Positions 23,904 to 57,034 of a stretch of DNA of 64,000 nucleotides are shown piece by piece. Source of the stretch: Candidatus Eiseniibacteriota bacterium (GTDB lineage: Bacteria > Eisenbacteria > RBG-16-71-46 > CAIMUX01 > VGJL01). The notes beneath the pieces were generated by a model, which was not told the DNA's origin, made no database searches, and saw only the letters and a list, made by a program, of their open reading frames with translations. A program made the position numbers and the translations under genes. The stretch spans positions 64,001 through 128,000 of the forward strand of contig JBHGAY010000005.1 in assembly GCA_041946735.1 (NCBI GenBank). Reading direction: 5' to 3'. Position 1 is the stretch's first letter. Each line of letters opens with the position of its first letter.

Positions 23904-24011
23904 CAGCCGGCCACGAGGTTCCCTTCAACCGGGCGACCGGCGGTGCGGGTAGGCGCGGGCCCACGCGCTGGCTTCCGCGCGGGCTTCTTCCATCCACGGT
24001 CGGAATTCCTG

Positions 24012-24036
24012 GTATCAGCGGAGCCGCCCCGCCGTC
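24012..24036 (+). promoter_or_regulatory. Candidate ECF promoter for the glycosyltransferase operon
   Basis: GTATCAG-N14-CGTC ending 32 nt before ATG 24069. Confidence 0.45.
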
Positions 24037-24068
24037 AGATCCAGTGCAAGGGTCGCATCGAGGGGGAC

Positions 24069-25436: not shown

Positions 25437-25444
25437 GGACCGCC

Positions 25445-28089: not shown

Positions 28090-28105
28090 GGCATGATTTG
28101 AGGCG

Positions 28106-35854: not shown

Positions 35855-37143
35855 GCGGCTCGTGAGGCGCGCCGGTTTCGGATCGGCTCGCCCCGGAGCG
35901 AGCCGCCCCGGATCCCTTTCTCCTCGAGCAGCTCGTCGTAGAGCGCCTCGATGTCGCGTAGCAGGCGATCGGCGCCGAAGCGTTGCACGACCTTTGCGAC
36001 GTCCGAGCGTTCCGCGCGCTGCCCTGGACGATCGAGGTAGCGCCGCATCGCCGCGGCGAGAGCCCGCGGATCGCGATCGGCGACGAGCGTCGCCAGCGGA
36101 TAGCCGCGCACGATCTCCGGCACCCCACCCACGCTCGTGCAGACGACCGGGATGCCCGCCGCCATCGCTTCGATCACGGCGACCGGCGTCCCCTCGTTCT
36201 TCGAGGTGAGCAGCAGAAGGTCGAGATCGGCGAGGATTCGATCGAGATCGGTCCGGTAGCCGAGGAAGGTGATGCGTCCGGCAAGGCCGAGCGAACGCGC
36301 CTGCTCTTCGAGCGGCCCGCGTAGCGCGCCATCCCCGACGACGACGAACCGGACGGGATGGGGAAGCGTCTCGATGGCGGCCGACGCCGCCTGCAGAAGC
36401 AGGTCGGGGTTCTTCACATCCGTCAATCGTCCCACCCAACCGACCAGCCGTTCCCGTGCGCCCGCCCCGATCTCGGCCCGCAGCGAACGGCGCAGCGCGC
36501 TCGACGCGGCGAAGCGGGCGAGGTCCAACCCCAGCGGCACGACCCGCACCTTCTCGGGCGGGGCGACGCGATGCCGTTCGCACAGCTCGCGCTTCTGGCT
36601 CTCGGAGATCACGACGATCCGGTCGCTGACCGCCGCGAGCATCCGCTCCGCCTCGGTGAACGCCTGGCTGACCGGGGCTGCGAAATAGCCGTCGAGGACA
36701 TGTCCATGGAAGGTGTGGACGACGATCGGCACGCCGCACGCGCGCGCCGCAAGCCGGCCGAGGGCGCCGGCCTTCGCGGTATGCGTGTGGACGATCCAAG
36801 GCCGCTCCCGCCGGAAGATCCGGCAGAGATCGGCGAATGCGGCGACGTCGCGCACCGGATGGACGCTCCGGCGCATCCTACCAAGCCGGTGCGCCCGCAC
36901 GCCGATCGCCCGCGCCGCATCGAGGAGGTCCTTCTCGCCTGGCTCCGTCGCACCGCCGATCAGGACGGTCCGGAAGCGCGAGGGATTCAGCCGGGACGAG
37001 AGCAGGATCGTCTGCTGCGCCGGGCCGCCGACGCAGATCCGGCTCTGCACGCGGCAGATCGGAATCCGCCCGCCACGCTCGCTTCGCCCGCTCCGCCCGC
37101 TCCGGCCGCTCTTCTCGATCCGCCCGCTCCGCCCGCTCCTCAC
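35851..37143 (-). CDS. GT4 glycosyltransferase
   Basis: GGPAQQ, HTHTAKAGALGRLAA, VHTFHGH, NEGTPVAVIEAMAAG. Confidence 0.93.
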   Translation of the reverse strand: MRSGRSGRIEKSGRSGRSGRSERGGRIPICRVQSRICVGGPAQQTILLSSRLNPSRFRTVLIGGATEPGEKDLLDAARAIGVRAHRLGRMRRSVHPVRDVAAFADLCRIFRRERPWIVHTHTAKAGALGRLAARACGVPIVVHTFHGHVLDGYFAAPVSQAFTEAERMLAAVSDRIVVISESQKRELCERHRVAPPEKVRVVPLGLDLARFAASSALRRSLRAEIGAGARERLVGWVGRLTDVKNPDLLLQAASAAIETLPHPVRFVVVGDGALRGPLEEQARSLGLAGRITFLGYRTDLDRILADLDLLLLTSKNEGTPVAVIEAMAAGIPVVCTSVGGVPEIVRGYPLATLVADRDPRALAAAMRRYLDRPGQRAERSDVAKVVQRFGADRLLRDIEALYDELLEEKGIRGGSLRGEPIRNRRASRAA

Positions 37144-39560: not shown

Positions 39561-40846
39561 CGTTCCTCCGATTCCATGGCGGTGGCTGCGAGGGGCTCAC
39601 AAGCGAAACGTGCGGACATCCCCTTGCGTCCTGTGGCGGCGTGCGAGCGGTATCGCTGCCGCGCGAGAAGATTCCGGTAGACGGCGGCGAGGGCCGCCGC
39701 GGACCGGCGGGTCGTGAACTGGGCCTCGAAGCGAGCGCGGCCCGCCTCTCCCATGCGGGCGGCTCGCGTGGGATCGGCGAAGAGCGCGGCGATCGCGCGG
39801 GCGAGGGCTTCCGGGTCGCGAGGGGGGACAAGGATGCCCTCGATCCCATCGCGGATCGCTTCGGGAATCCCGCTGACCGCCGTCGCCACGACCGGCCGGC
39901 GTGCGCGCATCGCCTCGAGGATCGAGATCGGCAGTCCCTCCCAATCCGAGGAGAGGACGAACAGGTCCGAGGCCGCGAGAAGCGCGTCGACGTCCGGACG
40001 CGGGCCGAGGAAGAGGACGGAGCCGGCGAGACCGGCCGCGGCGGCGCGCCGCTGGACCGCGCCGCCCATGCGATCCTCTCCAGCGAGAAGCAGGCGGGCG
40101 CCCGGGTGCTCCTCGCGAACGTGCGTGAACGCGTCGAGAAGCGTGGCGTGCCCCTTCATCGGGCGAAGGTTCGCGACGCAGAGCGCGACCGGATCGTTTG
40201 CGTCGATTCCGAGCGAGCGGCGCACGGCGGCGCGGAGGGGCGCCACGCCAGAGGCGGAGGCGAAGTCATCGTGGACCTCGATCCCGTCGTGGACGACGCA
40301 CACCGAAGCCGGAGCGAGGCGGTCGGACGCGATGCGCGCGCGCGCCACCGCGGCGGCGTTGGCGACGTGAAGGTCGTTGCCGATCCTCGTCACGCGCTCC
40401 GCGATCCACTGGGCGCGTGAACGGTCCGCGTTCGTGCTCAACAGCCCGGTGACGACACGCGGGCGCGGTCCGGAGCCTGCCGCGGCGAGATGGGCCGCGA
40501 TCCGGGAGGCGGCGATGGCGCGGGTCCCGTAGGCGTGCAGGACGTCGAAGCGGCCAGCGCGCACGATCGCCCGCAGCGCCAGGATCTGTTCGATGGGATG
40601 GCGGGCCGCGACGGCGTGGAACGCGAGTCCGCAGCGGCGGGCGAGGGACGCCGCCGGACCGTCCCCCGCAAGCCCCGCCGCCTCGATCTCGATCCCTTCA
40701 CGGAGGAGCGGTTCGCGCAGGCGCGGGAGCATCCGTTCGATCCCCCCGATGGCGGAGGAAGAGACGACCTGGAGAACGCGGACGTTCCGGGCGCCGTCTC
40801 CGGCCCCTACCCAGCCATTCGCGCGCGCGCCGTCCTTTTCGCTCAC
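39557..40846 (-). CDS. GT4 glycosyltransferase
   Basis: VLQVVSS..GGIER, ANLRPMKGH, WEGLPISILEAM; GTGA overlap start. Confidence 0.92.
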   Translation of the reverse strand: MSEKDGARANGWVGAGDGARNVRVLQVVSSSAIGGIERMLPRLREPLLREGIEIEAAGLAGDGPAASLARRCGLAFHAVAARHPIEQILALRAIVRAGRFDVLHAYGTRAIAASRIAAHLAAAGSGPRPRVVTGLLSTNADRSRAQWIAERVTRIGNDLHVANAAAVARARIASDRLAPASVCVVHDGIEVHDDFASASGVAPLRAAVRRSLGIDANDPVALCVANLRPMKGHATLLDAFTHVREEHPGARLLLAGEDRMGGAVQRRAAAAGLAGSVLFLGPRPDVDALLAASDLFVLSSDWEGLPISILEAMRARRPVVATAVSGIPEAIRDGIEGILVPPRDPEALARAIAALFADPTRAARMGEAGRARFEAQFTTRRSAAALAAVYRNLLARQRYRSHAATGRKGMSARFACEPLAATAMESEER

Positions 40847-41928
40847 GCCGCCGTCCTCCGTGCCGGCTCCTTCCGGCCGCCCGCGCGCCCGGCGTCGGCG
40901 CGCCCGGCGTCGGCGAGCCCGGCGTCCTCCAGGACGCGCTTCATGCGGCAGCGGTAGGTATGGTCCTGGTGGGCGCGCTCGCGCCCCCGCGCGCCGATCG
41001 CCTGCGCCTTTTCGGGACGGGCGAGGAGGTGATGGAGCTTGCCGCGCAGCTCGTCGACGCTCCGCCACGAGACGATCTCCTCTCCTTCACGGAAGAGGTT
41101 CGGCAGCTCCTCGGTCCATTCGGTGAGCGTGAGAGCGCCGCAGGCCGGGCCCTCGAACGTCCGCATGTTTTGCGCGAGCTTCGACTGTGGATGCTGGATG
41201 TTCAGCACGGCGCGGTGCCCGCTGTAGATCCGGACCATCTCCCCGCCGCTGGCCCTCCCTCGATAGTGGGGCGCGAGCGGATGCAGGGGCCGGCGGGCGA
41301 GAGCGAGCGGCCAGCCGCCTCCCCAGATGGAGAGCGGAAGGTCGCGGATCTCGCGCAGGAGCCGGTCGCGGTTCGGGTACCAGGTGCCGACGAAGCAGAG
41401 AATCCCTCCCAGCTCGCGGCGCTCCGCCTGGGAGAGCGGGATCGGCCGGTGCACCTTCGGATCGCACGCCATGGGGAGGTACTGCGGGCGGGCGACGCCG
41501 CGCTTGCGCAGCGCCTCTCGATAGTACGGGTCGAAGACGTAGACGAGATCGAACGCGGGGGCCGCTACGATCTCGCGGCCGCGCTGATACGGGTCGTCGG
41601 CGATCCACAGGGCCGTGCGGATCCCGCGGCGCGAGATCCGCTGGATCGTCCGCGCATCGAACACCTCGCCGCCGATCACGAACAGGAGCTGCGGGCGGAA
41701 CTCGTCGACCGCTCGAAGCAGTCCCTGCCGCCGCGGGGGATAGAGGACGTGACCGAGGGGGCGGAACTTGAGGCGCGCCCGATTGCCCAGCTTCCAGACG
41801 GCGTGATCGCGGAAACCGAGGTAGTCGAACAGGCGCACCTCATGGCCGATCTCCTCGAAGGCGCGGACCGTCCCGGTCGCCAAATGTCCGGGAAGGTGGG
41901 GAAAGGTGCCGGCGACGAGGACTCTCAT
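40843..41928 (-). CDS. CgeB-family glycosyltransferase
   Basis: WIADDPY, YLPMACDP, FVGTWYPNR, NMRTFEGPACG; ATGA overlap. Confidence 0.88.
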   Translation of the reverse strand: MRVLVAGTFPHLPGHLATGTVRAFEEIGHEVRLFDYLGFRDHAVWKLGNRARLKFRPLGHVLYPPRRQGLLRAVDEFRPQLLFVIGGEVFDARTIQRISRRGIRTALWIADDPYQRGREIVAAPAFDLVYVFDPYYREALRKRGVARPQYLPMACDPKVHRPIPLSQAERRELGGILCFVGTWYPNRDRLLREIRDLPLSIWGGGWPLALARRPLHPLAPHYRGRASGGEMVRIYSGHRAVLNIQHPQSKLAQNMRTFEGPACGALTLTEWTEELPNLFREGEEIVSWRSVDELRGKLHHLLARPEKAQAIGARGRERAHQDHTYRCRMKRVLEDAGLADAGRADAGRAGGRKEPARRTAA

Positions 41929-43256
41929 GCGACTCGCCTCCTTTCGGACGTCTCGATCGAAGGAACGCGACCGGCGAGGACGCGGGCGAAAGCCGCGGCG
42001 ACGGCCCTGGCGCTCTCTTCCCATTCGAACCGGCCGGCGCGGGCGAGCCCGGCCGCCGTCATCGACCGGCGCAGGCCGGCGTCCCCCGCGATTCTCTCCA
42101 GCGCGGCGGCGATCTCCTCGATCGACGCGGGGTCGAAGCGCAGGAGCGCTTCCCCTCCGACCTCGGGTAGGCTCGACGCGTTCGATCCGAGGACGGGACA
42201 GCCGCACGCCATCGATTCCAGCACGGGGAAGCCGAACCCCTCGTAGAACGACGCGTCGACGCTGGCGAGCGCCCCGCCGTAGAGCAGGCGGATCTGCTCG
42301 CGCGAGAGAAAGCCGGGGAAGCGGACCCGCTCCTCGATCCCATGCATGCGCGAGCGGCGCCGCAGCTCCTCCACGTACTCCCCGTTGCCGCCGGCGCCGA
42401 TCCGCCCGGTCAGCACGAGGCTCGGCGCGGGGGCGCGGCTTCCGGCGCCGAACGCGCGCGCGAAGGCTTCCAAGATCCCGTGCGCGTTCTTGCGGGGCAG
42501 CAGTCCGGCGGTCGAGAGGAAGTACGGGCGCCGGATGCCGAGATCGCGGAGGCAATGCTGGAGCGCCGGCTCCTCGTGCGCGCCGAGCGGGCGGAAGATC
42601 GGCTCGCAGCCGTTCGGGATCGCTTCGATCCTCTCGCGCGGGACTGCGAGACGCGATTCGAGGTCGCGAGCCGACGCTTGCGAGACGGTGAGGACGAGAT
42701 CCGCCCGGCGCGCGCTGACGCGAAGCAGGGTGTGGTAGACGGCGCGCCGGGCGAGAGTCGCTTCGCGGGCGAAGACGAGAGGGATGACGTCGTGCATCGT
42801 GACGACGTGAGGGCGGTCCTTCCAGAGCGGAAGGACGAAGACGGGCGACCAGAGCAGGTCGCAGCCGTCGCGCACGATCGCGCGCGGCAGCAGCACCTGC
42901 TCGAAGAGCAGGTTCCCCGCGCGGCGGCCGACCGGCCGGCCGAGATCGCGCGTGACGACATTCGCTCCGCCCGGCGGAATCGTTCCCGGCTCGCGCTTCG
43001 CCCAATAGAGGTGGAAGGTGGCGGCGGGACAGAGGCGCGAGAGGCGCTCGACCAGCTGCCGCGTGTAGATTCCCGGGCCGGTCTCCACCGTCCCGATCGA
43101 GCGGGCGTCGATCGCGATGCGGCGGCCGGCCAGCTCGCCGGCTCCAGCGGCGACATCGGCCGCGGCGACATCGGCCGCGGCGACCGCGGCGGCAGCGACA
43201 TCGACGGCGGGGGCATCGGCGACGCGGGCGACGTCCTCGGCGTCTCGCGAGGTCAC
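41925..43256 (-). CDS. GT4 glycosyltransferase (mannosyltransferase-like)
   Basis: IAIDAR..GPGIY, VTMHDVIP, PRKN, FYEGFGFPVLESMACG, SSLPEV. Confidence 0.92.
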   Translation of the reverse strand: MTSRDAEDVARVADAPAVDVAAAAVAAADVAAADVAAGAGELAGRRIAIDARSIGTVETGPGIYTRQLVERLSRLCPAATFHLYWAKREPGTIPPGGANVVTRDLGRPVGRRAGNLLFEQVLLPRAIVRDGCDLLWSPVFVLPLWKDRPHVVTMHDVIPLVFAREATLARRAVYHTLLRVSARRADLVLTVSQASARDLESRLAVPRERIEAIPNGCEPIFRPLGAHEEPALQHCLRDLGIRRPYFLSTAGLLPRKNAHGILEAFARAFGAGSRAPAPSLVLTGRIGAGGNGEYVEELRRRSRMHGIEERVRFPGFLSREQIRLLYGGALASVDASFYEGFGFPVLESMACGCPVLGSNASSLPEVGGEALLRFDPASIEEIAAALERIAGDAGLRRSMTAAGLARAGRFEWEESARAVAAAFARVLAGRVPSIETSERRRVA

Positions 43257-44098
43257 GGCAGCCTCCGGAAGACGCCGGTCACGTTCATGAGCCACCACGG
43301 ACCGAAGCGCTCCTCGAGCGCGCGCCAGGGGGCCTCCCAGACCGGCTCGAGGAAGCGGGCGTGCAGGCGGTCGATCGAGCGCAGCGCCGCGCTCCGCTCG
43401 AGCGGGAGCCGCGAGGAGACCTTCCGCCACGGCCAGCGGGCGAGCGCCGAGTAGCGCTCGTACCCCCATCCGGAAAGGCGGAGCAGCTCGAGCGGCAACC
43501 CGAGGACGAGCCGCTCGATCTCGCGCGGCGTGTACTCGCGTTCCCAGCCCCAAGGCCAATCCCCCCGCCGCATCCGGAGCCGTTTGCGCAGCGTGTAGAG
43601 GTTGTACCGTTGCGGGACGTCCACCACCAGGATCCCGCCGGGACGGAGCAGCCGCACGTTCTCGGCGAGCAGCGGCCGTGGGTTTGCGAAATGCTCCAGC
43701 AGTCCCTGATGGAACAGGACGTCGAACGTCCCGCCGGCGAACGGAGCGCGGAAGCCATCCCCGCGATGCAGGTGCACCCGACGGGGAAAAAGCCGCCCGA
43801 CCCGGCGCGCATGCTCGGCGGCCGTCGCGGCGGCGTCGAGCGCGTGGAACTCCGCCTCGCACCGGGCGGCGAGCCAGCAGGAATCGATCGTCGATCCGGC
43901 GCCGACCTCGAGCACGCGGCGGGCCTCCGTCTCGGCGATCGCCTCGAGAAGGACCGCGTAGAGCGGGCGCTTCAGGTGCACCTGGTGCTCGATGTCGCGC
44001 ATCAGGCGCGCGTCGTCGGCCGCAAGCCGCCAGAAGGCGGCGTGGTCGGGGATCCGCTCGTCACCGCCTCGCGGGGCCTCGGCTAGAGCTGCACGCAC
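43253..44098 (-). CDS. Class I SAM-dependent methyltransferase
   Basis: VLEVGAGS, FDVLFHQGLLEHF, RLLRPGG; RBS GGAGGAGG before GTG. Confidence 0.88.
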   Translation of the reverse strand: MRAALAEAPRGGDERIPDHAAFWRLAADDARLMRDIEHQVHLKRPLYAVLLEAIAETEARRVLEVGAGSTIDSCWLAARCEAEFHALDAAATAAEHARRVGRLFPRRVHLHRGDGFRAPFAGGTFDVLFHQGLLEHFANPRPLLAENVRLLRPGGILVVDVPQRYNLYTLRKRLRMRRGDWPWGWEREYTPREIERLVLGLPLELLRLSGWGYERYSALARWPWRKVSSRLPLERSAALRSIDRLHARFLEPVWEAPWRALEERFGPWWLMNVTGVFRRLP

Positions 44099-45090
44099 GA
44101 GTCCTCCTCCTCCTCGGGCCCGCCCGCCTCGGACGCCGGTTGTTCCGGAACGGGACGATCGAGCGCCACGAACGCGCGGCGCATCCAGCGCAGCTTGGCT
44201 GCCGCGGCGGCGTCGCGCAGAAGGCAAGAACGCGCCAAGGCCCTCGCCATGCGCGGAAGGAGCGAAAGGCGCAAGGCGAGGGCCAGCGCGACGGCGAAGG
44301 GGAGCCCGAAGCGCTTGCGCGCGTAGAGAACCTGGCTCCGCATCCCCTCGATCCGGGTCCGCCCTCCGTCCCTCCCGGGATTGCGCCGTGAGGATTGCGC
44401 GACGGAATGCGCGAGCGAGACGCCGCGGTGGCGGGCGATCCGGAATCCGTGGATGCGGAGGCGATGGCAGAGGTCGACGTCTTCCCGATAGAGGAAGAAC
44501 GATTCGTCGAAGGCGCCGGCCCGCTCGAGCGCGTCGCGGCGCAGGAACAGGCACGCTCCGGCGAGCCAGTCGGTCTCGTGCAGCTCCGGGCCGAGGAGGC
44601 GGCCGACGTCGTGGAGCCGTCCCGGGTCGCGCGGAGCGAGCAGGGCGTAGCGCAGCAGTCGTGCGCGCGTCGGGAAGCGGTCGTCGTATTCCCAGATGGA
44701 GCCGTCGCCGCGGAGGAGCAACGGGGCGAGCGCGCCGATGTCGGGGCGGGCCGCGAGGACTCCGGCGCACGCGCGGAGCGCCCGCGGCTCGATCGCGACG
44801 TCCGGATTCAAGATGCAGACGATGGAGGCGCGGGTGGCGGCGATCCCTTGGTTGGCGGCGCGGGCGAAACCCAGGTTCGCGCGGTTGGCGATCCGCACCG
44901 CCCAGGGATGTGCGCGCTCGACCAGGGCGGCGCTGCCGTCGCTCGAGGCGTTGTCGACCACCACCACTTCGGCCTCTCCGCCGATGGCGAGGGGACGGAG
45001 GGCGGAGAGCGCTTCGTCGAGGAGATCCGCGGTGTTCCAGTTCACCAGGACGTAGGCGACTCGCGGAGCGAGGCGGTCGCGGGGCGTCAT
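44083..45090 (-). CDS. GT2 glycosyltransferase (rhamnosyltransferase-like)
   Basis: VNWN, VVDNASSDGS, NLGFARAANQG, LNPD, GACL, FFLYREDVDLC. Confidence 0.93.
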   Translation of the reverse strand: MTPRDRLAPRVAYVLVNWNTADLLDEALSALRPLAIGGEAEVVVVDNASSDGSAALVERAHPWAVRIANRANLGFARAANQGIAATRASIVCILNPDVAIEPRALRACAGVLAARPDIGALAPLLLRGDGSIWEYDDRFPTRARLLRYALLAPRDPGRLHDVGRLLGPELHETDWLAGACLFLRRDALERAGAFDESFFLYREDVDLCHRLRIHGFRIARHRGVSLAHSVAQSSRRNPGRDGGRTRIEGMRSQVLYARKRFGLPFAVALALALRLSLLPRMARALARSCLLRDAAAAAKLRWMRRAFVALDRPVPEQPASEAGGPEEEEDSCVQL

Positions 45091-46709
45091 GGCGTGGGCT
45101 CCGCGAGAAGCGCGCCGGCGGCCCGGGGCGTCGGCTCAGGCGCTTGCGCGCTGCGCGCGACGGGCACGGGCGCGGCAGGCGCGTTGCGAACCACTGGCGC
45201 GGCGAGCGTGACGGCCGTGGCGGTCACGGCCGGCGCCGTCGCGGTCGCGGGCACGGCGGTCCGCGCGGCGCACGCGCAGCGCCTCGCCTCCGCCGTCCCG
45301 AGGACGAGTCCCGTCCAGGCGCAGCCGACATAGTGGGTGAGCCACGGAGCGGTCAGCGAGATCGCGAGGATCGCGACGAAGCCGGAGAGGAGCCCGGCCG
45401 CGAGGGCCTTCTCTTCCTCGTCAGGCGCGGCGCGCAGCCAGCCGGCGAACGCGGCGCTCCCGAGAGCGAGCAGCGCGCCGATCACGAGCGCGCCGGCCAG
45501 CCCGAGCTTCAGGAGGTAATGCGCGTAGCTGTTGTGGATGTACTCCCACTCCCGGAAGCCGTGCGCCTCGGGCGAGTAGAAGACGTAGGTGCCTCCCCAT
45601 CCGGTGCCGAACCACGGGGAACTGCGAAGCGCCTCCTTCACCCCCTCGGTCTCGGCGAGCCGTTCGAGCGCGGAGGTGTCCGGGCGGCCGGCGAGAAGTC
45701 CGCCGAGGCGCCCGCCGATCGGCTCCCAGAGCGCCCGCAGGGAGAAGCCTTCCACCATCCTCTGGACGACAAGAACGACGCAGGCGGCGGCGGTGGCGAA
45801 GCCGCACAGCTCCGCGAGGGCGGCGATTCCTTTGCGCGGCGGCCGGCAGAGGAGGAGCGCGGCGAGGCCGGCGGCGAGGCCGAGCCAGTAGCTCCGGGTC
45901 AGCGAGATCGCGAGGGCGAGGAAGAGCGGGGTGAGCGCGAACCATATCGCCACCCGTGCGCCGGCCCGGCGGATCCGGGGCGCGTTCGCGAGCAGCAGGA
46001 GAATCGCGAGGACGGGGAAGATCTCTCCGCCGTGCGCGATGACCCGCTTCGCGCCGCTGCTGTTCATGACGCGGGTCGCGAGGATCCGCTGCTCCTCTCC
46101 GCCCGGGATGCCGAGCGGAACGGAGGCGTAGACGAACAGGACCTTCACCGCGGTCGCCACGCTGACGGCGATCAGCGCGGCGAAGACGACCCGGTGCGTG
46201 AGACGCCAACCGCGCGCCGAAGCCGCCCCACCGTCCGTTCGAGTCCCCATCGCGCCGCGCGCGAGGGCGTAGGTCACGAGCAGGTAGAGGGGCGGGCGCA
46301 GCTCCGAGCGAAGGAGAGGGAAGTCTGCCCCGCGAGCGATCCCGCGATAGGCGCCGAAGAGGACCAGCGCGGCGAACGCGGCGAACGCGATATCGAGGCG
46401 CGTGGCGCGGAGCGATCCGCCGCCCGCGATCCAGCGCGCGGCCGCGCCGGCGCCCGCCGCGAGAAGGACGAGGTCCGCCTCGACGATCTCGACTCCGAGG
46501 CGCAGCCGCAGGATCGAGTCGGATCCGAGGAGGGCGATCCCGGCGAGGATCGTGACGAGGCCCACCGCCGGACTGCGCATCGACAGCAGGATCAGCGCGG
46601 TCCCGCCTGCCGCTCCGGCCGCGACGAGCGGGCGCCACGCGGCCAGGCCGGCGATCGCGAGCGAGCCGGCCGCGAAGAGGACGCAGGCGAGCGCGCGGCC
46701 GCGGGTCAT
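45087..46709 (-). CDS. O-antigen ligase / Wzy-like polymerase
   Basis: Many TM segments, SLTRSYW, PWFGTGWG, IHNSY..LLKLGL. Confidence 0.85.
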   Translation of the reverse strand: MTRGRALACVLFAAGSLAIAGLAAWRPLVAAGAAGGTALILLSMRSPAVGLVTILAGIALLGSDSILRLRLGVEIVEADLVLLAAGAGAAARWIAGGGSLRATRLDIAFAAFAALVLFGAYRGIARGADFPLLRSELRPPLYLLVTYALARGAMGTRTDGGAASARGWRLTHRVVFAALIAVSVATAVKVLFVYASVPLGIPGGEEQRILATRVMNSSGAKRVIAHGGEIFPVLAILLLLANAPRIRRAGARVAIWFALTPLFLALAISLTRSYWLGLAAGLAALLLCRPPRKGIAALAELCGFATAAACVVLVVQRMVEGFSLRALWEPIGGRLGGLLAGRPDTSALERLAETEGVKEALRSSPWFGTGWGGTYVFYSPEAHGFREWEYIHNSYAHYLLKLGLAGALVIGALLALGSAAFAGWLRAAPDEEEKALAAGLLSGFVAILAISLTAPWLTHYVGCAWTGLVLGTAEARRCACAARTAVPATATAPAVTATAVTLAAPVVRNAPAAPVPVARSAQAPEPTPRAAGALLAEPTP

Positions 46710-48235
46710 CGGCCGGCTCCGGCGGCGCGGCTGCGCGCCGGCTCCTTGCCGGGGGCCCCGCAGTCCCCTTGGCGGACCCACCCGAGGCGCTCGAGAAGGC
46801 GGCGGGACCGGCCCGCGCCGGCGTTCGCCGCGAGCCACTCGCGATCGATCGGGCGGATCCCGCCGAGGGCGATCCAGATCGTCGCGTAGATCGCGCCGCC
46901 GAGGAACAAGCGCGGGAGCGGCGGCGCGCCCAGCGGCCCGACGATCGCCGCAGCGAGGAACGCCGCCGGAACGGCCGGGAGGAGCGATTCGCCGAGGACC
47001 ACCGCGCCGAAGCGATCGCGCAGAAGCCACAGGTTGCGTCCCACGACGAGCGCCTGCGTGGCCACGGCGGCGAGAGCCGCTCCGCGCAAGCCGGCCCGCG
47101 GGATCAGGAGCAGAGCGGCGGCGACGCTCGCGGCGAGGCCGATCGCCTCGCTCAGCAGCACCTGGCGCGCCCGGCCGAGCGCGTACAGCGCGCCGCCCGC
47201 GATGTGGTTCAGCGACAGGAGGGGCAGGCAGGCGACCAGTATCGCGAGGCAGGGGCCGGCCGTGGCGTAGTCCGGTCCGTAGACCCAGTCGATCCATCGT
47301 CCCGCATCGAACGCGAGGAGCGTCGCGAAGGGGATCGTGACGGCGAGAAGCCCGTGCGAGGCGAGCCGGCAGCTCGACGTGAACGAGGCGCCGGAGCGGT
47401 CGGCCGCGCGCGAGAGGATCGGATAGATCGCGGCGGCGACGCTCCCGGGGATGAGGATCCACAGGTCGACGACCTTGAAGGTCGCCGCGTACAGCCCGGT
47501 CGCGTGATCGTCGAGCAGCGCGGGCAGCAGCATCACGTTCATGCGGAAGTAGAGCGCGAAGAGGATCCCGGCGACGCCGAAGGAGGCGGAGCGCCGAAGC
47601 ATCGTGCCGACGAGGCGCCAGCGGAAGGTCAGGAAGCGGACCCGGCGGCGGCGCACGAGCGCCAGCCCGGCGAGCGCCCCGCAAAAGGAGGAGACGATCA
47701 TCGCTCCCGCGATTCCCGGCACTCCGAGGCCGCCGCGCAACGCCGCGTAGCCGAGCGCGACGCGTAGAAGATTCGTCGATGCCTCGACGATCACTCGCGG
47801 GGCGAACTCTTCCCGCGAGGAGAGGACCGCCAGACCGCAGCTACCGAGCAGCGAGAAGAGCGTCCCGGCCGCCATGAGCCCGACGGCGAGGCGGACGTCG
47901 GCCGCCTGGTGGAGCAGGAACGCGAGCGGGAGCAACGTGAGCATGCCGCAGGCCCAGAGCAGGGCGCGGGTCAGCATCGAAGCGGTGAAGACCTCCGAGC
48001 TTCCCCAAGGATCGCGCGCCATCTCGCGAATCGCGTGGAGGTCGATCCCGAAGGCGGCCCCGATCGAGAGGTAGGAGGCGAGCGCGACGGCGAGGGAGTA
48101 TTGCCCGAAGCGGTCGGTTCCCAGCTCGCGCGCCGCGAAGACGACGAAGGCGAGCGAGAATGCCTGGGTCGCGAGACGGCCGGACAGAATCCAGACCGAG
48201 TTGCGCGAGGCCCTCCGCATCGTCTTCCTGTCCAT
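46706..48235 (-). CDS. wzx: Oligosaccharide flippase
   Basis: RNSVW..ARELG..FGQYS, many TM segments, GLYAA, LIPRAGLRGAA; RBS GGAGG. Confidence 0.9.
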   Translation of the reverse strand: MDRKTMRRASRNSVWILSGRLATQAFSLAFVVFAARELGTDRFGQYSLAVALASYLSIGAAFGIDLHAIREMARDPWGSSEVFTASMLTRALLWACGMLTLLPLAFLLHQAADVRLAVGLMAAGTLFSLLGSCGLAVLSSREEFAPRVIVEASTNLLRVALGYAALRGGLGVPGIAGAMIVSSFCGALAGLALVRRRRVRFLTFRWRLVGTMLRRSASFGVAGILFALYFRMNVMLLPALLDDHATGLYAATFKVVDLWILIPGSVAAAIYPILSRAADRSGASFTSSCRLASHGLLAVTIPFATLLAFDAGRWIDWVYGPDYATAGPCLAILVACLPLLSLNHIAGGALYALGRARQVLLSEAIGLAASVAAALLLIPRAGLRGAALAAVATQALVVGRNLWLLRDRFGAVVLGESLLPAVPAAFLAAAIVGPLGAPPLPRLFLGGAIYATIWIALGGIRPIDREWLAANAGAGRSRRLLERLGWVRQGDCGAPGKEPARSRAAGAGR

Positions 48236-48629
48236 GCTCCTCCCGGACGTCCTGGCCGGAACGGCCATCCGCCCGCGCGCGAGCGACCCGTCGGGCCGCG
48301 CCGACGGCGCAGCCAGGGCGTTCCTCCCCGGCCCTCTTGGCCGGGGCGCGCGGTTTCCTCTCCTCCCCTGGTTTCGGCAGATCGGCCGGGCGAGAACATC
48401 CGAAAGAAATCGACGGTTGCGACCGAACGCAACGGATTGCGCGCCGCTTCCCGGACCTCAAGGAGCGGACGATTCCACCGATAGTGTGAGGGAGTGGACT
48501 TCCCGGGAGGGAATGCCGGGGGCCACGGCAGGAAGCATCGAGGAAAGGAAGGTTCGAGGAGAGGATCCGAGGACCCCGGATGGGGAGCGGCCGCGAGGGA
48601 CGAAGGATGGCGAGGGTTTGGCCGGTGGC

Positions 48630-51196: not shown

Positions 51197-52030
51197 CTAG
51201 ATCAGGGTTCGCTTCCACGCGCGCGCCGGTTCGCTCGACCTCGCGCTCGTCGAGATCGAGGGAGCGCGGGCCGGCCGGGGGGCGTCGGCGGAGCCGTCGG
51301 TCCGGATCTCTTCGATCGACCGATCGGGCGCGATCCGCAGGACGAGGTCGGCGGGCTGGGAGGAGGCGAGAGCCTCCATGCGGCTGCGCGTCGACAGCAG
51401 GCACGAGAGCACCCGATTCACCGATTGATGCGCGAGGACGAGCGTCGGCGCGAACGCCAGCGCGGGTGCGGGCGCGAACGCCAGCGCGGGTACGGGTGCG
51501 AGCGCGAGCGCGGGTGCGGGCACGCGCGCGGGTGCGGGCGCGAGGGTTCGCGCCAGGGCGGGCGCGAGTTCCCCGCCCGCTGTCGTCGCCTCGGCCGCGA
51601 GATCCTGCACGAGCGAATGCAGCCGCGCGACTACGTCGGCGTAGCTTTCTCCTCCGGGCCAGCGGGCATGCCACTTGTCGCGCCGCCGCTGCTCGAGCAG
51701 CTCGGGAAAGCGCGCCTCGGCCTGAGCGACCGTGCCGCCCGAGCAGAGGCCGAAGTCCATCTCGACCAACTCTGCCCGCGTTTCCACGAGGGCGCCGGTT
51801 GCCTCGGCGACAATGCGGGCCGTCGCCTGGCAGCGTCCGAGGGGAGAGGCGAGGATCCTCGAGACGCCGCAGGTGCGCGCGAAGGCGGCGAGGCGCCGCG
51901 CCTGCTCCCAGCCAAGCGGCGTGAGCGGCGCGTCGCTCCGTCCCTGCATGCGTCCGTCCCGGTTCCAACGCGTCTCGCCATGGCGGGCCAGGTAGACCTC
52001 CCCGGCGAGGGCCGCGCTCGGCGCGTTCAT
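51197..52030 (-). CDS. Histidine phosphatase family protein
   Basis: LARHGETRWN, SPLGRC, EMDFG, PGGES, VLAH; ATGA overlap. Confidence 0.9.
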   Translation of the reverse strand: MNAPSAALAGEVYLARHGETRWNRDGRMQGRSDAPLTPLGWEQARRLAAFARTCGVSRILASPLGRCQATARIVAEATGALVETRAELVEMDFGLCSGGTVAQAEARFPELLEQRRRDKWHARWPGGESYADVVARLHSLVQDLAAEATTAGGELAPALARTLAPAPARVPAPALALAPVPALAFAPAPALAFAPTLVLAHQSVNRVLSCLLSTRSRMEALASSQPADLVLRIAPDRSIEEIRTDGSADAPRPARAPSISTSARSSEPARAWKRTLI

Positions 52031-52809
52031 CCGGCCGTCCCGCATGCGGGAGAGCTGGAGTCCGAGGCCGCGGGGGCGGAGCGTGAGGGGGAGAGCGCGA
52101 GCGAGGCGGCCGCAGGAACGCTTCGGCCCGCCGCGCTCGCGACGCGCAAGCCCCGCCAGATCGCCTCGGCGAACTCGAAGTCCTCGACAGTGTTCACGTC
52201 GACCGCCTCGATTCGCGAGAGCCGCAGCAGCCGGCATCGGTCCGGGCTCAGGCGGCGCCCGGTGGCCAGGACCGCCTCGGTGCGGTTCGCGTAGAGGCCG
52301 GTCGTCTCGTAGACGAACGGCTCCATCTCGAAGGAGTTCGGGATCGTGCCGTCCGGGTGGTAGTACGCCGGCCTCCCGGCGCTCCACAGGTAGAGCGGCT
52401 CCGCGAAGACGCCGACGACGCTGTGCGCGAGCGGGTCTTCGAGGAGCATCTCGACGGCGCGGTCGATGCTCGTGGGCGAGAGAAACGGCGAGGTCGGCAC
52501 GACCTGCACGACGATCCGCGAGTCGGCGAAGCTCTGCGCCTGCCACAGGGCGAGGTCGTCGCCGGTGGCAAGGTTCGAGGCGAGCGAGGCGGGACGGCGC
52601 AACGCCTCCGCTCCCCACTCGCAGCCGATTCGCAGGATCTCCTCCGCTTCGCTGTCGATCACGACGCGATCGACCCTGCGCGCGGCGCGCGCGTTGGCGA
52701 TCGCGTGGCAGAAGAGGGGACGGTCCCCCAGCATCCGGAGATTCTTGCCAGGGACGCGAAGGCTCGTGCCTTTCGCATGGACGACGGCGATGACCTCGCC
52801 CGCGCTCAC
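52027..52809 (-). CDS. neuA: Acylneuraminate cytidylyltransferase-like protein
   Basis: AKGTSLRVPGKN, IDSE, RRPASLA, PTSPF, YETTGLY, DVNTVEDF. Confidence 0.85.
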   Translation of the reverse strand: MSAGEVIAVVHAKGTSLRVPGKNLRMLGDRPLFCHAIANARAARRVDRVVIDSEAEEILRIGCEWGAEALRRPASLASNLATGDDLALWQAQSFADSRIVVQVVPTSPFLSPTSIDRAVEMLLEDPLAHSVVGVFAEPLYLWSAGRPAYYHPDGTIPNSFEMEPFVYETTGLYANRTEAVLATGRRLSPDRCRLLRLSRIEAVDVNTVEDFEFAEAIWRGLRVASAAGRSVPAAASLALSPSRSAPAASDSSSPACGTAG

Positions 52810-53885
52810 GCCGCCTTCCGGCGTCGCACCTCACCGGCCTCCTTCGCCTGCCTGGCTTCCTTCCCCTGCTCTGCCCCTCGCGTCGCTTGCTCCGCCGCGC
52901 GCGCGGCCTGCTCCGCCGTCTGCGCCCGCGCCGGAACCGGCGCCAGCTCGACCCCCGGCTCCCGCTTCGCCTTCGCCGTCCTGCCCGCCTCGAACCGGCT
53001 GGCGTCTCCGACGTAGCGATTGCCGTAGGTCTGCTCGACGAGGAAGCTTCGTTCGACGTTCGTCATCCCGAAATGGGTGGACAAGGCTGTCTCGGGGAGG
53101 TCTTCCCACCCTTCTCCCGGCCTGCGGCCCTCGCGATCGCGCCTCACCATCTCACGGAACTCATCGGGCTCGAGCGAGCACTCGATGTGATGGACGAAGG
53201 AATGGCGGGAGAGGCAGAAGTGGCGCTCGACGATCTTGGCTCCCTGGTCGATCGCGGCGAAGGTCGGCGCGATGCCGATCTCATGGCCGCTGTAGCCGAT
53301 CGTCACCCGCGGGCCTCCGAAGCGCCGCTCGAGGGAGAGGATGTTGCCCAGGCGCAACGATTCGGGTGGGCAAGGGTATTCCGCGACGCAGTGGAGCAGC
53401 CATACCGGGTGATGGCGGAAGATCGAGAGCGAATCTTCGATCTGGTCCAGCGTCGAGCCGCCGACCGACATCACGATGGTCCGGTCGCGCGGGATGTTGC
53501 GGGCCAGCTCCTCGAGGAAGGGACGGTTCCGCGCGTTCGACGACGCGACCTTGTAGCGCTTCAGGTCGAAGTCGAGCATGAACCGCAGGCTCGGGAGATC
53601 CTGGACCGTGCAGAACCATTCGATGCCGTGCTCCCGGCACTTCGCGTCGAAGCGGCGGAAGTCCTCTTCGCAGAACTCGAAGATCGTGCGGTAGTCGCGA
53701 TAGCTCTTGCCGTAAGGGCTCGCGAACGGGGCGTCGAGCTTCTCGCGTGAATAGAACGATTCCACGTCCTTCTTCTGCATCTTGATCGCGTCGCACCCGG
53801 CCCAGGCCGCGCGCTCGACCATCCGCTGGAGAACGTTCAGGTTCCCCATGTGGTTCGTCGTGAACTCCGCCACGAATCGGGTCAT
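52806..53885 (-). CDS. neuB: NeuB-family nonulosonate synthase, atypical
   Basis: AEFTTNHMG, DAIKMQK, KVASS, LHCVAEYP, GYSGHE, VERHF, SLEPDEF; RBS AAGGAGG. Confidence 0.88.
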   Translation of the reverse strand: MTRFVAEFTTNHMGNLNVLQRMVERAAWAGCDAIKMQKKDVESFYSREKLDAPFASPYGKSYRDYRTIFEFCEEDFRRFDAKCREHGIEWFCTVQDLPSLRFMLDFDLKRYKVASSNARNRPFLEELARNIPRDRTIVMSVGGSTLDQIEDSLSIFRHHPVWLLHCVAEYPCPPESLRLGNILSLERRFGGPRVTIGYSGHEIGIAPTFAAIDQGAKIVERHFCLSRHSFVHHIECSLEPDEFREMVRRDREGRRPGEGWEDLPETALSTHFGMTNVERSFLVEQTYGNRYVGDASRFEAGRTAKAKREPGVELAPVPARAQTAEQAARAAEQATRGAEQGKEARQAKEAGEVRRRKAA

Positions 53886-53908
53886 CCAATCCTCCTTGGC
53901 GCGCCGGA

Positions 53909-53980
53909 CGAGCCGGGTTCTGCGCTCGAGCCGGGTTCTGCGCTCCAGCCGGGTTCCTCGCTCGAGCCGGGTTCTTCGCT
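53909..53980. repeat. 18-nt tandem repeat x4 filling most of the rraA-neuB spacer
   Basis: CGAGCCGGGTTCTGCGCT x2 plus two variant copies; no spacers. Confidence 0.95.
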
Positions 53981-54735
53981 CACCATCGGCCGATGCGGTC
54001 GTAGAGGGACTGCACGTCGTCGGTGCCCTCCAGAGCACGCCGCACCTCGTCCTCGCGCGCGAGGCGCTGGGAGGCGAGGTAGGCCACGCGCTCCGCGAGG
54101 TCCTGCGGAACGACGATCACGCCGTCCGGGTCACCGTAGACCAGGTCGCCCGGACGGACCGGAACCGGTCCTTCGATCCCGGACAGCGCGATCGGCTGCT
54201 GGTAGTCGACGATCTGCCAGCGCCCGAAGGCGTCGATCGGCTGGGCTCCGCGGCAGAAGACGGGGAAGCGGTCCTCCTCGAGGCGCCGCGCGTCGCGCGT
54301 CCACCCATCGACGACCGCTCCGGTCGCGCCGAACTTGCGGGCCAGCCTCCCGCTGATATCGCCGAAGTGGGCTACGGACGCGTCGCCCCCCGCGTCGATC
54401 ACCTGCACGCAGCCGGGGGTGAAGGAGCGGAACATGCGGATGCGCACGGTGTCGTCGACGTGACGCTCGTCCAAGACGCGAGCGCCGGTGCAGGTGAAGG
54501 CGGGACCGAAGAGGATCGCGCCGCGTGGCAGCGACCAGAGCGGCTTGACCGCCGCATGCACGACGAACGGCCGCGGCCAGTTGAGATCGAAGCGGAGGGC
54601 GTCGTAGATCACCCCCGCGTAGAGGCCGGCGTAAGCGTCGCGCAGATCGCTCCGTTCCAGGACATCGACCGCCGGTTTCGGTTTCGGCTGTGGCTTGGAC
54701 TCCCGCCTCGATTCCGGCTCCAGAATTGGCTCCAC
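53980..54735 (-). CDS. RraA/HMG-CHA aldolase family protein
   Basis: IYDAL, GPAFT, AHFGDISG, VVDGWTRD, VRPGDLVYGDPDGVIVVP; RBS GGAGGAGG before GTG. Confidence 0.9.
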   Translation of the reverse strand: MEPILEPESRRESKPQPKPKPAVDVLERSDLRDAYAGLYAGVIYDALRFDLNWPRPFVVHAAVKPLWSLPRGAILFGPAFTCTGARVLDERHVDDTVRIRMFRSFTPGCVQVIDAGGDASVAHFGDISGRLARKFGATGAVVDGWTRDARRLEEDRFPVFCRGAQPIDAFGRWQIVDYQQPIALSGIEGPVPVRPGDLVYGDPDGVIVVPQDLAERVAYLASQRLAREDEVRRALEGTDDVQSLYDRIGRW

Positions 54736-54905: not shown

Positions 54906-56750
54906 TTACCGCCCCGCGCCCGCCCGGGCGGGATCCGAAGCCGGCGCCTGCGCCCAGCGCGGCGGAGCGTCGGGGCGGATCGGGATCGAGTCGGGGATCA
55001 CCTCGCCGCCGATGGCTTCCTTCGCCTCGCGGAGGAGCGAGCGCACCTCTTCTCCTTCGGCCGATCGGAAGGTCGCTGCGGTCAGGCCGGACATCAGCGC
55101 GCGCTCCATCCGCTGCAACGTGCGGCGTTGCGCCTCGACCTCCTTGCGCGCCGGCCGCCGCCGGCCTCCCGGATCGCGGATCTTCTCGATCCAGGCGCGC
55201 ATCTCAGCCCTCGCCGAGTCCGGATCGAGGGGCAGGACGTCGAACCGTCCCGGCGCGCTGCGATACTCGTGATCGAACTCCTGGGACCACGCATAGCGCC
55301 AGGGACCGGGCTCCTCCGGATGGAAGCGAATCGTCCAGCGGTAATCGCCCTCGTAGCTCGCGAGCAGATCCCATCTTCGTCCGCTGGGCGACTGGAACGT
55401 CCAACGCACCTTCTGCTTCTCGGGAGCCGCGGTCCGGATCCAGGTGTCGCGCAGCTCCGCTTCGAAATCGCCGCCGAGCGGAATGGGATCGACGGCGGCG
55501 AGGATGCGCGCCTGCAAGCGGCGCGCTCCGGCGCAATCCCACAGCGGCTCGCGATGCCAGGCGGTGGCCCTGGCGCTGGTGGCGGTGGCGGCGAGGTCGG
55601 CCGCCATCGTTTCGCCACCTGCCGTCCGTATCTCGACGGTCGCGCGCGGCGAGCCGGGGTCGGGAAGCCACGTGCAGGCGATGCGCGCCGCGCCCGCCGC
55701 GAGATCGAGTTCCGGCAGGGCGAGCACGCGTCCCGGTTCCAGCCGCACCGCCTGCTCGATGCGAGCCACCTCGCCGGGCGCCTCCCATTCCAGCTCGAGT
55801 CGCGGGCGCCGGGCCACGTTGCGAGAGTCCCCCTCGTTGGCCGAATAGAGGGTGACGACACTGCCCGGCGTGTCTTCCTCGACGTCCCCGACCTTCAACA
55901 GGAAGAGGAGCGGACGGCCGGCCGCGATCCGGCGCGTTGCGCAGGACGCGAGCCCGGCGGAGTCGAAGATGACCCGCGAAGCGCCGGGGACGTACACCGC
56001 GTCCGCGAGCGGCATCGCGCCGGTGTCGGCCTGCCGATCGGTGTCAGAGGCGTAGCCCGCGCCGGGAAGGGCCCAGGCCTCCTCGCCGAAGGCGGCGTCG
56101 TTCCACCACACCTCGCCGGGGCGTGGGGGGCTCACGTTGTCTCCGAGCGTCCCGCCGCCGCCCGTTCGATAGTCCCTCTTCATCTCATAGAGAACGAGGC
56201 GCACGCTGTCGGCCGGGCCGCTCTCGACGCCGATCGTGAGCGTCCCGCGCGTTACGATCGCCCCCGGCGGCAGCTCGATCCCCTCCCAGCGCTGCACGAC
56301 GCGGAACAGCTCGTACTCCCCGTACGCTTCGCTCCCGTCGCGGCGCCCGACCCGCACGTGCACCTGTCGCGCCTGGTTCCACGCATGCTTGTACGTTCCG
56401 TCGAGGAACCCTCGCAGATCGTTGTCTTCCATCCCGGAATAGGTAGGGCCGTCGACGAATGTGAAAACGTGGCGCTGCGAGAGGACGCTCCTCGCGCCGC
56501 CTCGGGCGTCGCCGGCTCCGCCGGCGAAAGCGGAGACGCGAAGCGTCCCGGAGAAGGGGGCGGACAGCGCCACGTCGGAGCGAAACGGTTCGATCTCCAT
56601 CCGGCGAAGCAGGCGGCGGCCGGCGAGGAAGGCGCCGCCGGCGAGCGCGAGCGCAAGCGCGAGAAGCGCGAGGGCGAGAAGCGGGCGACGGATGGGGAGC
56701 AAGCGGTTTCGGCCCGGTCTGCCGCCGGGCGCGCGAGCCGTGACGGACAA
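54906..56750 (-). CDS. Membrane-anchored or secreted multidomain hypothetical protein
   Basis: N-terminal hydrophobic helix; LPPGAIVTRGTL..W..PGA..RPRLEL resembles DNRLRE-type domains; C-terminal WTIRFHP..PGPWRY Ig-like part; TTG start after GAGGAGG. Confidence 0.65.
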   Translation of the reverse strand: MSVTARAPGGRPGRNRLLPIRRPLLALALLALALALAGGAFLAGRRLLRRMEIEPFRSDVALSAPFSGTLRVSAFAGGAGDARGGARSVLSQRHVFTFVDGPTYSGMEDNDLRGFLDGTYKHAWNQARQVHVRVGRRDGSEAYGEYELFRVVQRWEGIELPPGAIVTRGTLTIGVESGPADSVRLVLYEMKRDYRTGGGGTLGDNVSPPRPGEVWWNDAAFGEEAWALPGAGYASDTDRQADTGAMPLADAVYVPGASRVIFDSAGLASCATRRIAAGRPLLFLLKVGDVEEDTPGSVVTLYSANEGDSRNVARRPRLELEWEAPGEVARIEQAVRLEPGRVLALPELDLAAGAARIACTWLPDPGSPRATVEIRTAGGETMAADLAATATSARATAWHREPLWDCAGARRLQARILAAVDPIPLGGDFEAELRDTWIRTAAPEKQKVRWTFQSPSGRRWDLLASYEGDYRWTIRFHPEEPGPWRYAWSQEFDHEYRSAPGRFDVLPLDPDSARAEMRAWIEKIRDPGGRRRPARKEVEAQRRTLQRMERALMSGLTAATFRSAEGEEVRSLLREAKEAIGGEVIPDSIPIRPDAPPRWAQAPASDPARAGAGR

Positions 56751-57034
56751 GTGCCCCTCCTCTTCCGTTCCCTTCGTGCGATCGCGTCCCTTCGTGCGAT
56801 CGCGCGTCTCTGTCGATCGCTTGGTCGCCAGGGTAGGCGAAAGGCGGCTCGGAGGCGATGCCGATCGTGCATGCGATCGGTCCATGGACGGCTGCCGCTC
56901 CCGGCCGGATTCCCGATCAGACGTTCCGCGTCGCCAGCGAGATGGCGATGGGTCTATGCTCACAGGCCGCGGATTCGGAGGGACCAAGGCTTCGCTGCGA
57001 CCGGCCGCTTTCGCCGACAGGGGAGGCGGCTATC

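Follow-up and report, generated by a model that had tools for sequence, protein, structure and literature searches.

Two described systems stand closest to the locus reported here. The cytidine monophosphate (CMP)-KDN (3-deoxy-D-glycero-D-galacto-non-2-ulosonic acid) pathway is known from Bacteroides thetaiotaomicron, where it comprises the BT1714 synthase, a KDN-9-phosphate (KDN-9-P) phosphatase and a CMP-KDN synthetase, and from Prymnesium parvum (PMC6200933, in part; this mark denotes sources available as partial text). In Cafeteria roenbergensis virus (CroV), a giant virus, crov265-267 are predicted, without validation, to encode an isomerase, a Kdo (3-deoxy-D-manno-oct-2-ulosonic acid)-8-phosphate synthase with a phosphatase, and a NeuA-like protein that carries, as a fusion, a 'demethylmenaquinone methyltransferase' domain; in the available part of that report the product is treated as plain Kdo and the extra NeuA-fused domain is given no role (PMC9614988, in part). 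This unvalidated cassette is the only printed relative that we found, and a description of NeuB combined with RraA and a cytidylyltransferase was not found in the literature searched, subscription papers and supplements being largely outside its scope. Here we analyzed 64,000 nucleotides (the window) of a Candidatus Eiseniibacteriota bacterium (assembly GCA_041946735.1, contig JBHGAY010000005.1, positions 64,001 to 128,000), which carry at 51,197 to 54,735 a cassette of four genes for an RraA-like protein, a divergent NeuB, a NeuA and a histidine phosphatase. Judged from sequence, the cassette is a real, widespread and uncharacterised variant of ulosonate biosynthesis, and it most likely makes and activates a cell-surface sugar acid related to the sialic acids. 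We favour, with moderate confidence, a pathway in which RraA would remodel the free keto-acid derived from the NeuB product, between the phosphatase and CMP activation, and would not act on the NeuB precursor.

Like the CMP-KDN pathway, the cassette combines a NeuB-family synthase, a phosphatase and a CMP-synthetase without NeuC, and its substrate is probably a phosphorylated aldose. It differs by a histidine phosphatase in place of the KdsC/HAD type, by an extra RraA-fold enzyme, by a His-His pair where the sugar-binding Asp stands and by a distinct NeuA clade, BT1714 being compared by description only. With crov265-267 it shares a phosphoenolpyruvate (PEP)-dependent synthase, a phosphatase, a CMP enzyme that is NeuA-like and not KdsB-like, an RraA-named domain and a TylF-like O-methyltransferase, whereas CroV has KdsA and an isomerase rather than NeuB, with the RraA-named domain fused (PMC9614988, in part), and the RraA domains of the NeuA-RraA fusions described below fall in a separate clade. 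From the systems for N-acetylneuraminic (Neu5Ac), pseudaminic (Pse) and legionaminic (Leg) acids it differs by scores far below the family cut-offs and by the lack of NeuC, Pse or Leg precursor genes. None of the four proteins exceeded any NCBIfam equivalog cut-off. PF02350 (NeuC family) and PF01041 (DegT-family aminotransferase) had no match inside the window (contig C45 in our numbering), which bears out the statement of an earlier note on this DNA that such precursor genes are missing there. Genome-wide (4.89 Mb, 72 contigs, ~95% complete), no NeuC passed the NCBIfam cut-off, the two PF02350 genes lying on other contigs with 81 and 66 bits against 235.9, and each cassette gene is single-copy. 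To judge by these comparisons, the cassette works like the CMP-KDN and CMP-Kdo pathways, yet by cut-offs it lies outside the Neu5Ac, Pse, KdsB and LigK families.

A genome scan with NeuB recovered 44 loci, 24 of them at 52-76% identity, followed by a gap down to 27-33%; nine close loci came from viral contigs and 80, the best 80 of 111 matches, from an alignment-based metagenome scan. By named records, the close group covers Myxococcota, Alpha-, Beta- and Gammaproteobacteria, SAR11, Prochlorococcus, Gastranaerophilales, Bacillota and phages, and all four genes are present in the cultured Eilatimonas milleporae DSM 25217. A metagenome scan with RraA alone gave no match, its search patterns being too strain-specific. 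Neither the plasmid collection nor the GenBank phage collection yielded a member of the NeuB clade (best identities 37% and 32%), so that a carrier with a known glycan structure was not obtained either. Because an orthologue of the NeuB lineage occurs in none of 40 relatives of the source genome and a strong RraA orthologue in just 5 of 206 genomes of its phylum, the source genome counted, the cassette is patchily distributed and moves horizontally.

Neighbours were counted at 216 NeuB loci, forming 165 clusters at 95% identity, of which 43 with a cut gene or less than 2 kb of upstream DNA were left out; the phosphatase, NeuA and four-gene counts required at least 2.5 kb downstream as well. 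RraA, nearly always immediately 5' of NeuB, adjoined 50 of the 59 clusters whose NeuB carries the His-His motif and 0 of 63 others (23/26 against 0/53 at 70% identity). The phosphatase adjoined 28/42 His-His and 0/56 other clusters, NeuA 42/42 and 46/56, and the complete four-gene set was present in 20 of the 42. The zero for RraA near other NeuBs is not due to a narrow profile, because the same profile finds distant catabolic RraAs. These counts show linkage, not a probability; the linkage is far beyond chance, and the His-His motif predicts RraA and phosphatase neighbours. The conserved neighbourhood on which the earlier note had staked its proposal is therefore present, and it is lineage-specific. 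In a sister His-His lineage, 33-37% identical to the query, the order NeuA-RraA-NeuB was seen in 8/8 viral loci, seven of them with the phosphatase. Pairwise identities co-varied with those of NeuB for RraA (rho 0.59, n=59), NeuA (0.47, n=64) and the phosphatase (0.39, n=38).

The NeuB protein matched PF03102 with 181.6 bits (cut-off 22.1), and its ten best fold matches were all NeuB-family. In the structural model, residues 1-292 form the NeuB TIM barrel and two short C-terminal helices (template modelling score 0.74-0.77 to bacterial synthases), and residues ~293-359 align as an unconserved tail. Pfam detected no SAF domain, and the equivalent of Arg314 is also missing. The query scored 170.5 bits against TIGR03569 (Neu5Ac synthase NeuB_NnaB; cut-off 399.65, E. 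coli K1 NeuB 456.8) and 127.3 bits against TIGR03586 (PseI; cut-off 340.25), in agreement with the earlier view that it is no ordinary Neu5Ac, Pse or Leg synthase. Residues were mapped onto Neisseria meningitidis NeuB, in which two His bind Mn and two Lys and three Ser bind PEP. The equivalents of these ligands and of Glu25 and Glu234 (N. meningitidis numbering) are retained: H201, H222, K112, S115, S140, S199 and E220 occur in 40/40 clade members, K35 in 38/40 and E7 in 38/38 sequences with a residue there; Gln55 and Tyr186 are also kept. The TIM-barrel fold and the Mn and PEP ligands are thus shared with N. meningitidis NeuB, E. coli K1 NeuB and PseI, and the differences are the missing SAF/Arg314, GYSGHE instead of SDH, and an altered sugar pocket. 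Gly27 is replaced by Thr, Phe112 by Gln, Glu134 by Asn and Asp247 by His (His233 in the query), with residue roles taken from PMC11339185 and PMC8208679 (both in part); Asp247 contacts the sugar (PMC11339185, in part, with numbering offset by two). The Asp247 position is His in 37/40 clade members, and a second His stands just before it in 38/40.

In a tree of 195 sequences (all trees were FastTree with local supports, deep nodes being weak), the clade is nested in the QK[R/K]/GYSGHE branch, apart from E. coli K1 NeuB and Pse-like proteins, and the node uniting it with its sister NeuB lineages has a support of 0.997. At that node joins another large lineage (P0147-P0152 and relatives) of ~500-residue proteins with an extra N-terminal domain, E-[IFL]-T-[TN]-NH and GYSSHD motifs and no conserved Asp-His. 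The QK[R/K]/GYSGHE branch is one that we take to hold 9-phosphate-type synthases (human NANS, BT1714); the query carries the corresponding QK[R/K], basic beta2-alpha2 loop and GYSGHE motifs (K38, K39, R66, GYSGHE), in a tree without a characterised 9-phosphate member. The motifs GYSGHE, EFTTNH and SRHSFVHHIEC and the lack of SAF, by which the earlier note called this NeuB divergent, are all there, but two of them are no rarities: Gly stands at the GYSGHE position in 62 of the 108 other QK/R-type NeuBs examined, and SAF-less NeuBs are common in environmental bacteria, the loop having a role in the human enzyme (PMC8208679, in part). What is unusual is the His-His pair and the gene neighbourhood. 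That the locus simply encodes the ordinary pathway through KDN-9-P or Neu5Ac-9-P, RraA being a bystander or catalytically inactive, is very improbable. The nesting of NeuB among presumed 9-phosphate enzymes would suit such a pathway. So would the fact that mannose-6-phosphate needs no dedicated precursor gene (PMC6200933, in part). Yet the sugar-binding Asp, present in 31/31 SDH-type and 81/108 other QK/R-type NeuBs, is the very residue replaced by His here, RraA is linked solely to the His-His lineage with an invariant catalytic motif in the cassette sequences, and no NeuC exceeds its cut-off.

The NeuA protein (PF02348, 65.8 bits against a cut-off of 22.6) remained below the cut-offs for PseF (80.4 against 205.7) and KdsB (at most 44 against 155-281). 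In a tree of 155 sequences, E. coli NeuA and KdsB stood apart from a clade of 96 (support 0.97) that unites the query with the cassette NeuAs, with NeuA-RraA fusions and with the NeuA of L225, whose neighbours are RraA and a 3-deoxy-D-arabino-heptulosonate 7-phosphate (DAHP) synthase. The fusions emerged from a viral scan with the RraA profile, as 34 loci with an RraA domain fused behind NeuA and no NeuB within 5 kb; both domains occur in 118 of the 120 best fusion relatives listed, out of 592 matches. They (L191-L224, L308, L355; P0408-P0527) belong to marine phages and some bacteria, usually beside a Maf/MptE-like or PF05159-like transferase; L355 is a flagellin, Maf and TylF locus. Two fusion-bearing phage records hold a separate KdsA and KdsB-like neighbour. 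The viral locus L225:1935-5471, which may encode a form of the pathway that makes a heptulosonate, has a small phosphatase-like gene and a ribulose-phosphate 3-epimerase/CBS fusion together with the type I beta DAHP synthase (TIGR01361, above cut-off), NeuA and RraA. In two further loci (L018:6177-9306 and L264:2930-4654), an HMGL-like aldolase is beside or fused to NeuA-like proteins adjoining the cassette, so that these loci may hold a further route to a CMP-sugar that relies on an aldolase.

'Demethylmenaquinone methyltransferase' is the legacy label of RraA proteins, and the extra domain of CroV crov266, compared by published description and not by sequence, would by this label be RraA. 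In CroV the precursor is already supplied, yet the RraA-named domain is kept on the CMP enzyme (PMC9614988, in part), suggesting that RraA acts downstream and not in precursor supply. Across loci the same plan recurs: a PEP-dependent synthase, a phosphatase, RraA, a NeuA of this clade and a CMP-sugar transferase, in many cases joined by a TylF-like methyltransferase. This plan, the sharing of the NeuA clade with NeuB-less fusions and the CroV cassette together lead us to place RraA between phosphatase and NeuA. The earlier idea that RraA builds or recycles a NeuB precursor is less supported, since RraA tracks the CMP-transferase, NeuB-less fusions included, and 9/59 clusters have no RraA. In its sharpest form, RraA would make a non-standard aldehyde for the His-His NeuB, for instance by dehydration and decarboxylation of a keto-deoxy-aldarate as in FlDet, an RraA-family enzyme that yields an aldehyde (PMC8563752, in part). 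The position of RraA almost always directly before NeuB, the strongest co-variation of the three partners and the remodelled sugar pocket all fit. We nevertheless consider it distinctly unlikely: His-His NeuBs with unchanged motifs exist without RraA, two such genomes giving no match with the RraA query, and precursor supply leaves unexplained the NeuB-less fusions as well as CroV, whose isomerase supplies the precursor (PMC9614988, in part).

The fusions also bear on whether RraA could itself be the synthase, joining pyruvate to a free aldose as a second route to the same or a second sugar, with NeuB and phosphatase in parallel. The loci L355, L308 and L198 contain no synthase, and their fusions adjoin transferases of the Maf/MptE-like or PF05159-like kind; NeuB was not found in 5/5 fusion-bearing virus records, which are fragments (11-72% complete). 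We give this possibility little credence, as a reversible aldolase and an irreversible PEP route would cycle futilely, so that loss would be expected in more than 9/59 clusters, most loci have a single NeuA, and those fusion-bearing genomes that were checked do contain KdsA-family genes.

The RraA-like protein adopts the long RraA/HMG-aldolase fold (predicted local distance difference test score 95), its best fold matches being 5IR2 and 3K4I. It has an intact G[DE]-X20-R-D motif, a C-terminal Glu and a clade-specific GRW tail. Its D99, R120, D121 and E201, numbered as in alignment A2, align with D102, R123, D124 and E199 of 3NOJ, an HMG/CHA aldolase (HMG, 4-hydroxy-4-methyl-2-oxoglutarate; CHA, 4-carboxy-4-hydroxy-2-oxoadipate), which we take to be its metal- and pyruvate-binding residues, and the catalytic motif is present in 53/53 cassette and 42/44 fusion sequences. 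Fold, motif and C-terminal Glu are thus common to 3NOJ, FlDet and the cassette protein, which differs by its biosynthetic context, its tail, 22% identity to 3NOJ and scores below the NCBIfam cut-offs for LigK HMG/CHA aldolases (TIGR02798, 52.4 against 304.5; PRK09262, 57.2 against 179). The cassette RraAs form one clade of 56 sequences (support 0.90), and their nearest relatives outside cassettes belong to clusters for the catabolism of sugar acids, where they accompany genes for UxuA, UxaC, altronate dehydratase or enolase-family proteins. In one locus (L173:266-1561), a cassette RraA and a GT29-like sialyltransferase domain share a single open frame. The chemistry of the fold includes pyruvate aldol cleavage and addition on 2-oxo acids and oxaloacetate decarboxylation (PMC5065237, in part), and dehydration with decarboxylation in FlDet (PMC8563752, in part). 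We infer that the known reactions all require a free 2-keto acid, which a CMP-glycoside lacks.

In another explanation, RraA would act as a lyase for salvage or proofreading, cleaving ulosonate that is faulty or in excess, or else would decarboxylate oxaloacetate, and the CMP-sugar would simply be the dephosphorylated NeuB product, KDN-like or shorter. The dispensability of RraA in 9/59 clusters, its catabolic relatives and the physiological role of HMG/CHA aldolases in cleavage and oxaloacetate decarboxylation (PMC5065237, in part) speak for it. Against it, eight of nine compact viral loci, most of which lack the phosphatase, still have RraA, the 34 viral fusion loci have little to salvage with no NeuB close by, the separate KdsA and KdsB-like pair in two fusion phage records suggests that the fusion product is other than CMP-Kdo, and the NeuA clade tracks RraA. 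Overall, we regard a salvage role as unlikely.

Several observations weigh against the downstream remodelling step that we prefer. Being related, the loci are no independent samples, and cassette members served to build the profiles. Nine of the 59 His-His clusters have no RraA; those of the Geminicoccaceae type among them retain a core-clade NeuA, with paralogues only 29-35% identical at other places in the genome. The phosphatase is missing in 14/42 His-His clusters, including 6/6 close viral loci with enough flank. The narrow His-His NeuB clade has a support of only 0.78. The RraAs of the cassettes fall in one clade and the RraA domains of the fusions in another, and therefore the two need not catalyze the same reaction. 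Two bacterial fusion genomes carry an ordinary NeuB elsewhere, the L225 record has an Asp-type NeuB just beyond the fetched stretch, which makes its synthase ambiguous, and the link to CroV goes through a label. The Geminicoccaceae-type loci without RraA (L008-L012, L014, L113) have, where the flank suffices, a short-chain dehydrogenase/reductase (SDR) oxidoreductase and a 328-residue protein of no known family before NeuB.

In the pathway that we propose, the His-His NeuB would condense PEP with a common aldose phosphate of central metabolism; the cassette has no isomerase or epimerase. The histidine phosphatase would then strip the terminal phosphate, the job of a HAD enzyme in the KDN and Kdo pathways; in phages this step would often be left to the host or to other enzymes. 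The substitution for a HAD phosphatase, put forward in the earlier note, is still the likeliest reading. The gene is a conserved, lineage-specific neighbour, and no KdsC-type phosphatase (TIGR01670) exceeded the cut-off genome-wide. The protein scored 144.8 bits with PF00300 and retains the RHG motif, the second Arg, the Glu and the His, with R16, H17, R66 and E90 in 44/44 and H201 in 43/44 aligned sequences, beside a strain-specific Pro/Ala-rich repeat insert (51430-51565). Phosphatases of ulosonate pathways are functionally redundant (PMC6200933, in part). Next, the RraA-fold enzyme would bind the free 2-keto acid on a divalent metal, form the C3 enolate and remodel the sugar, most likely either by C4 epimerisation (retro-aldol and re-aldol) or by joining a second pyruvate to the C2 carbonyl in a reaction of the HMG/CHA type, options that we hold about equal. 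A dehydration is less likely, because the constant reductase partner that it needs was not found near the cassettes, SDR occurring only in Geminicoccaceae-type loci. The dedicated NeuA clade would activate the product with CMP, as expected from its family, and GT29-like, Maf/MptE-like or PF05159-like transferases would use it, here presumably the one at C8:61249-63066, perhaps with the ribofuranosyltransferase at C8:113616.

The product is probably a CMP-activated 3-deoxy-2-ulosonic acid other than Neu5Ac, Pse and Leg, and plain KDN is unlikely; since the extra aldolase-like step is found in no characterised pathway, the sugar is probably an undescribed one. More specifically, and rather doubtfully, RraA might add pyruvate to the C2 ketone of the NeuB ulosonate (or of Kdo in the fusions), giving a chain-extended, 4-carboxy-branched, doubly acidic CMP-sugar.

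The earlier note had assigned the sugar to the adjacent polysaccharide cluster, a destination that now looks doubtful, an orthologue of a cassette-flanking transferase sitting on another contig (C8). Two opposite-strand genes lie between the Wzx/Wzy cluster (35851-48268) and the cassette, and Pfam found in that cluster GT2, GT4 and PF13524 enzymes and no recognised ulosonate transferase; its PF13524 gene may be one. When 28 neighbour or reference proteins were searched against the genome, seven matched: four PF05159-like transferases hit C8:61249-63066 (up to 44% identity over ~610 residues), two HAD-containing proteins hit C8 near 113616, and the last was KpsF. The PF05159-like family flanks 12 cassette loci and also the NeuB-less fusion L308 (30% identity); orthologues of this transferase and of the ribofuranosyltransferase flank NeuB cassettes (L001, L354) and L308 alike. 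No solved relative of the PF05159-like protein was found, the match to E. coli KpsS being weak (probability 25%), and the HAD-containing family matched the solved ribofuranosyltransferase 7SHG (E 4e-25). The PF05159-like gene is the best candidate for an acceptor transferase in the genome, and our best guess is a glycan of ribose and ulosonate built by unlinked genes. The ribofuranosyltransferase-like gene (C8:113616-116219; L371:7617-10220) is embedded among flagellar genes, and in L353 and L354 its orthologue stands between the cassette and motB, a placement that hints at a flagellum-linked glycan. A phage glycosylation island (L198:7720-10062) holds a RuBisCO-like protein and a nucleotidyltransferase. 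On the plus strand of the window, a second glycosylation-like cluster (23943-35854) encodes a GT28 C-terminal domain, a 1352-residue protein bearing three GT4 domains, and also an ABC transporter and a kinase of the APH family.

The four open reading frames are intact, and Pfam matches and minus-strand coordinates confirm them where the earlier note had placed them (Table 1). They run from RraA through NeuB and NeuA to the phosphatase, with 4-nt overlaps at NeuB/NeuA and NeuA/phosphatase and 94 nt between RraA and NeuB, mostly 18-bp repeats. Neither a promoter-like site nor a terminator that was informative could be located there. Tandem-repeat expansions affect the phosphatase insert, the RraA-NeuB gap (53909-53981) and the NeuB tail (52806-53010), and are absent from orthologues. 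The same-strand upstream gene (54906-56987) has a weak DUF5060 match and is not among the conserved cassette neighbours.

Table 1. Features of the four-gene cassette and their positions in the window.
Feature	Position	Strand	Support
RraA-like/HMG-CHA-aldolase-fold protein, 251 aa	53980..54735	-	PF03737 E 2.5e-23; GTG start, GGAGG-type ribosome site
Tandem repeat, 18 bp x 4 copies, in RraA-NeuB gap	53909..53981
SAF-less NeuB-family PEP-dependent ulosonate(-phosphate) synthase, His-His lineage, 359 aa	52806..53885	-	PF03102 E 2.2e-53
NeuA-like CMP-ulosonate synthetase, RraA-linked clade	52027..52809	-	PF02348 E 6.3e-18
Histidine phosphatase, branch 1	51197..52030	-	PF00300 E 3.2e-42

Ulosonic acids such as the sialic acids, Kdo, Pse and Leg determine recognition by phages, by predators and by hosts, and the prediction of their pathways leans on few characterised routes. 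Unassigned ulosonic acids, some of them higher-carbon, have been reported in mass-spectrometric surveys (PMC8157484; bioRxiv 10.64898/2026.04.20.719630); these are N-acetylated and not linked to the cassette. The His-His NeuB, the GRW-tailed RraA and their own NeuA clade define a branch that can be recognised in sequences and that currently bears the annotation of an ordinary N-acetylneuraminate synthase. With four enzymes that are small and soluble, and with carriers in culture, the pathway is directly testable. If true, it would give an RraA subfamily a biosynthetic role and explain the orphan domain of CroV crov266; should pyruvate addition by RraA also hold, this two-condensation route would define a new class of sialic-like surface sugars common to bacteria, phages and a giant virus.

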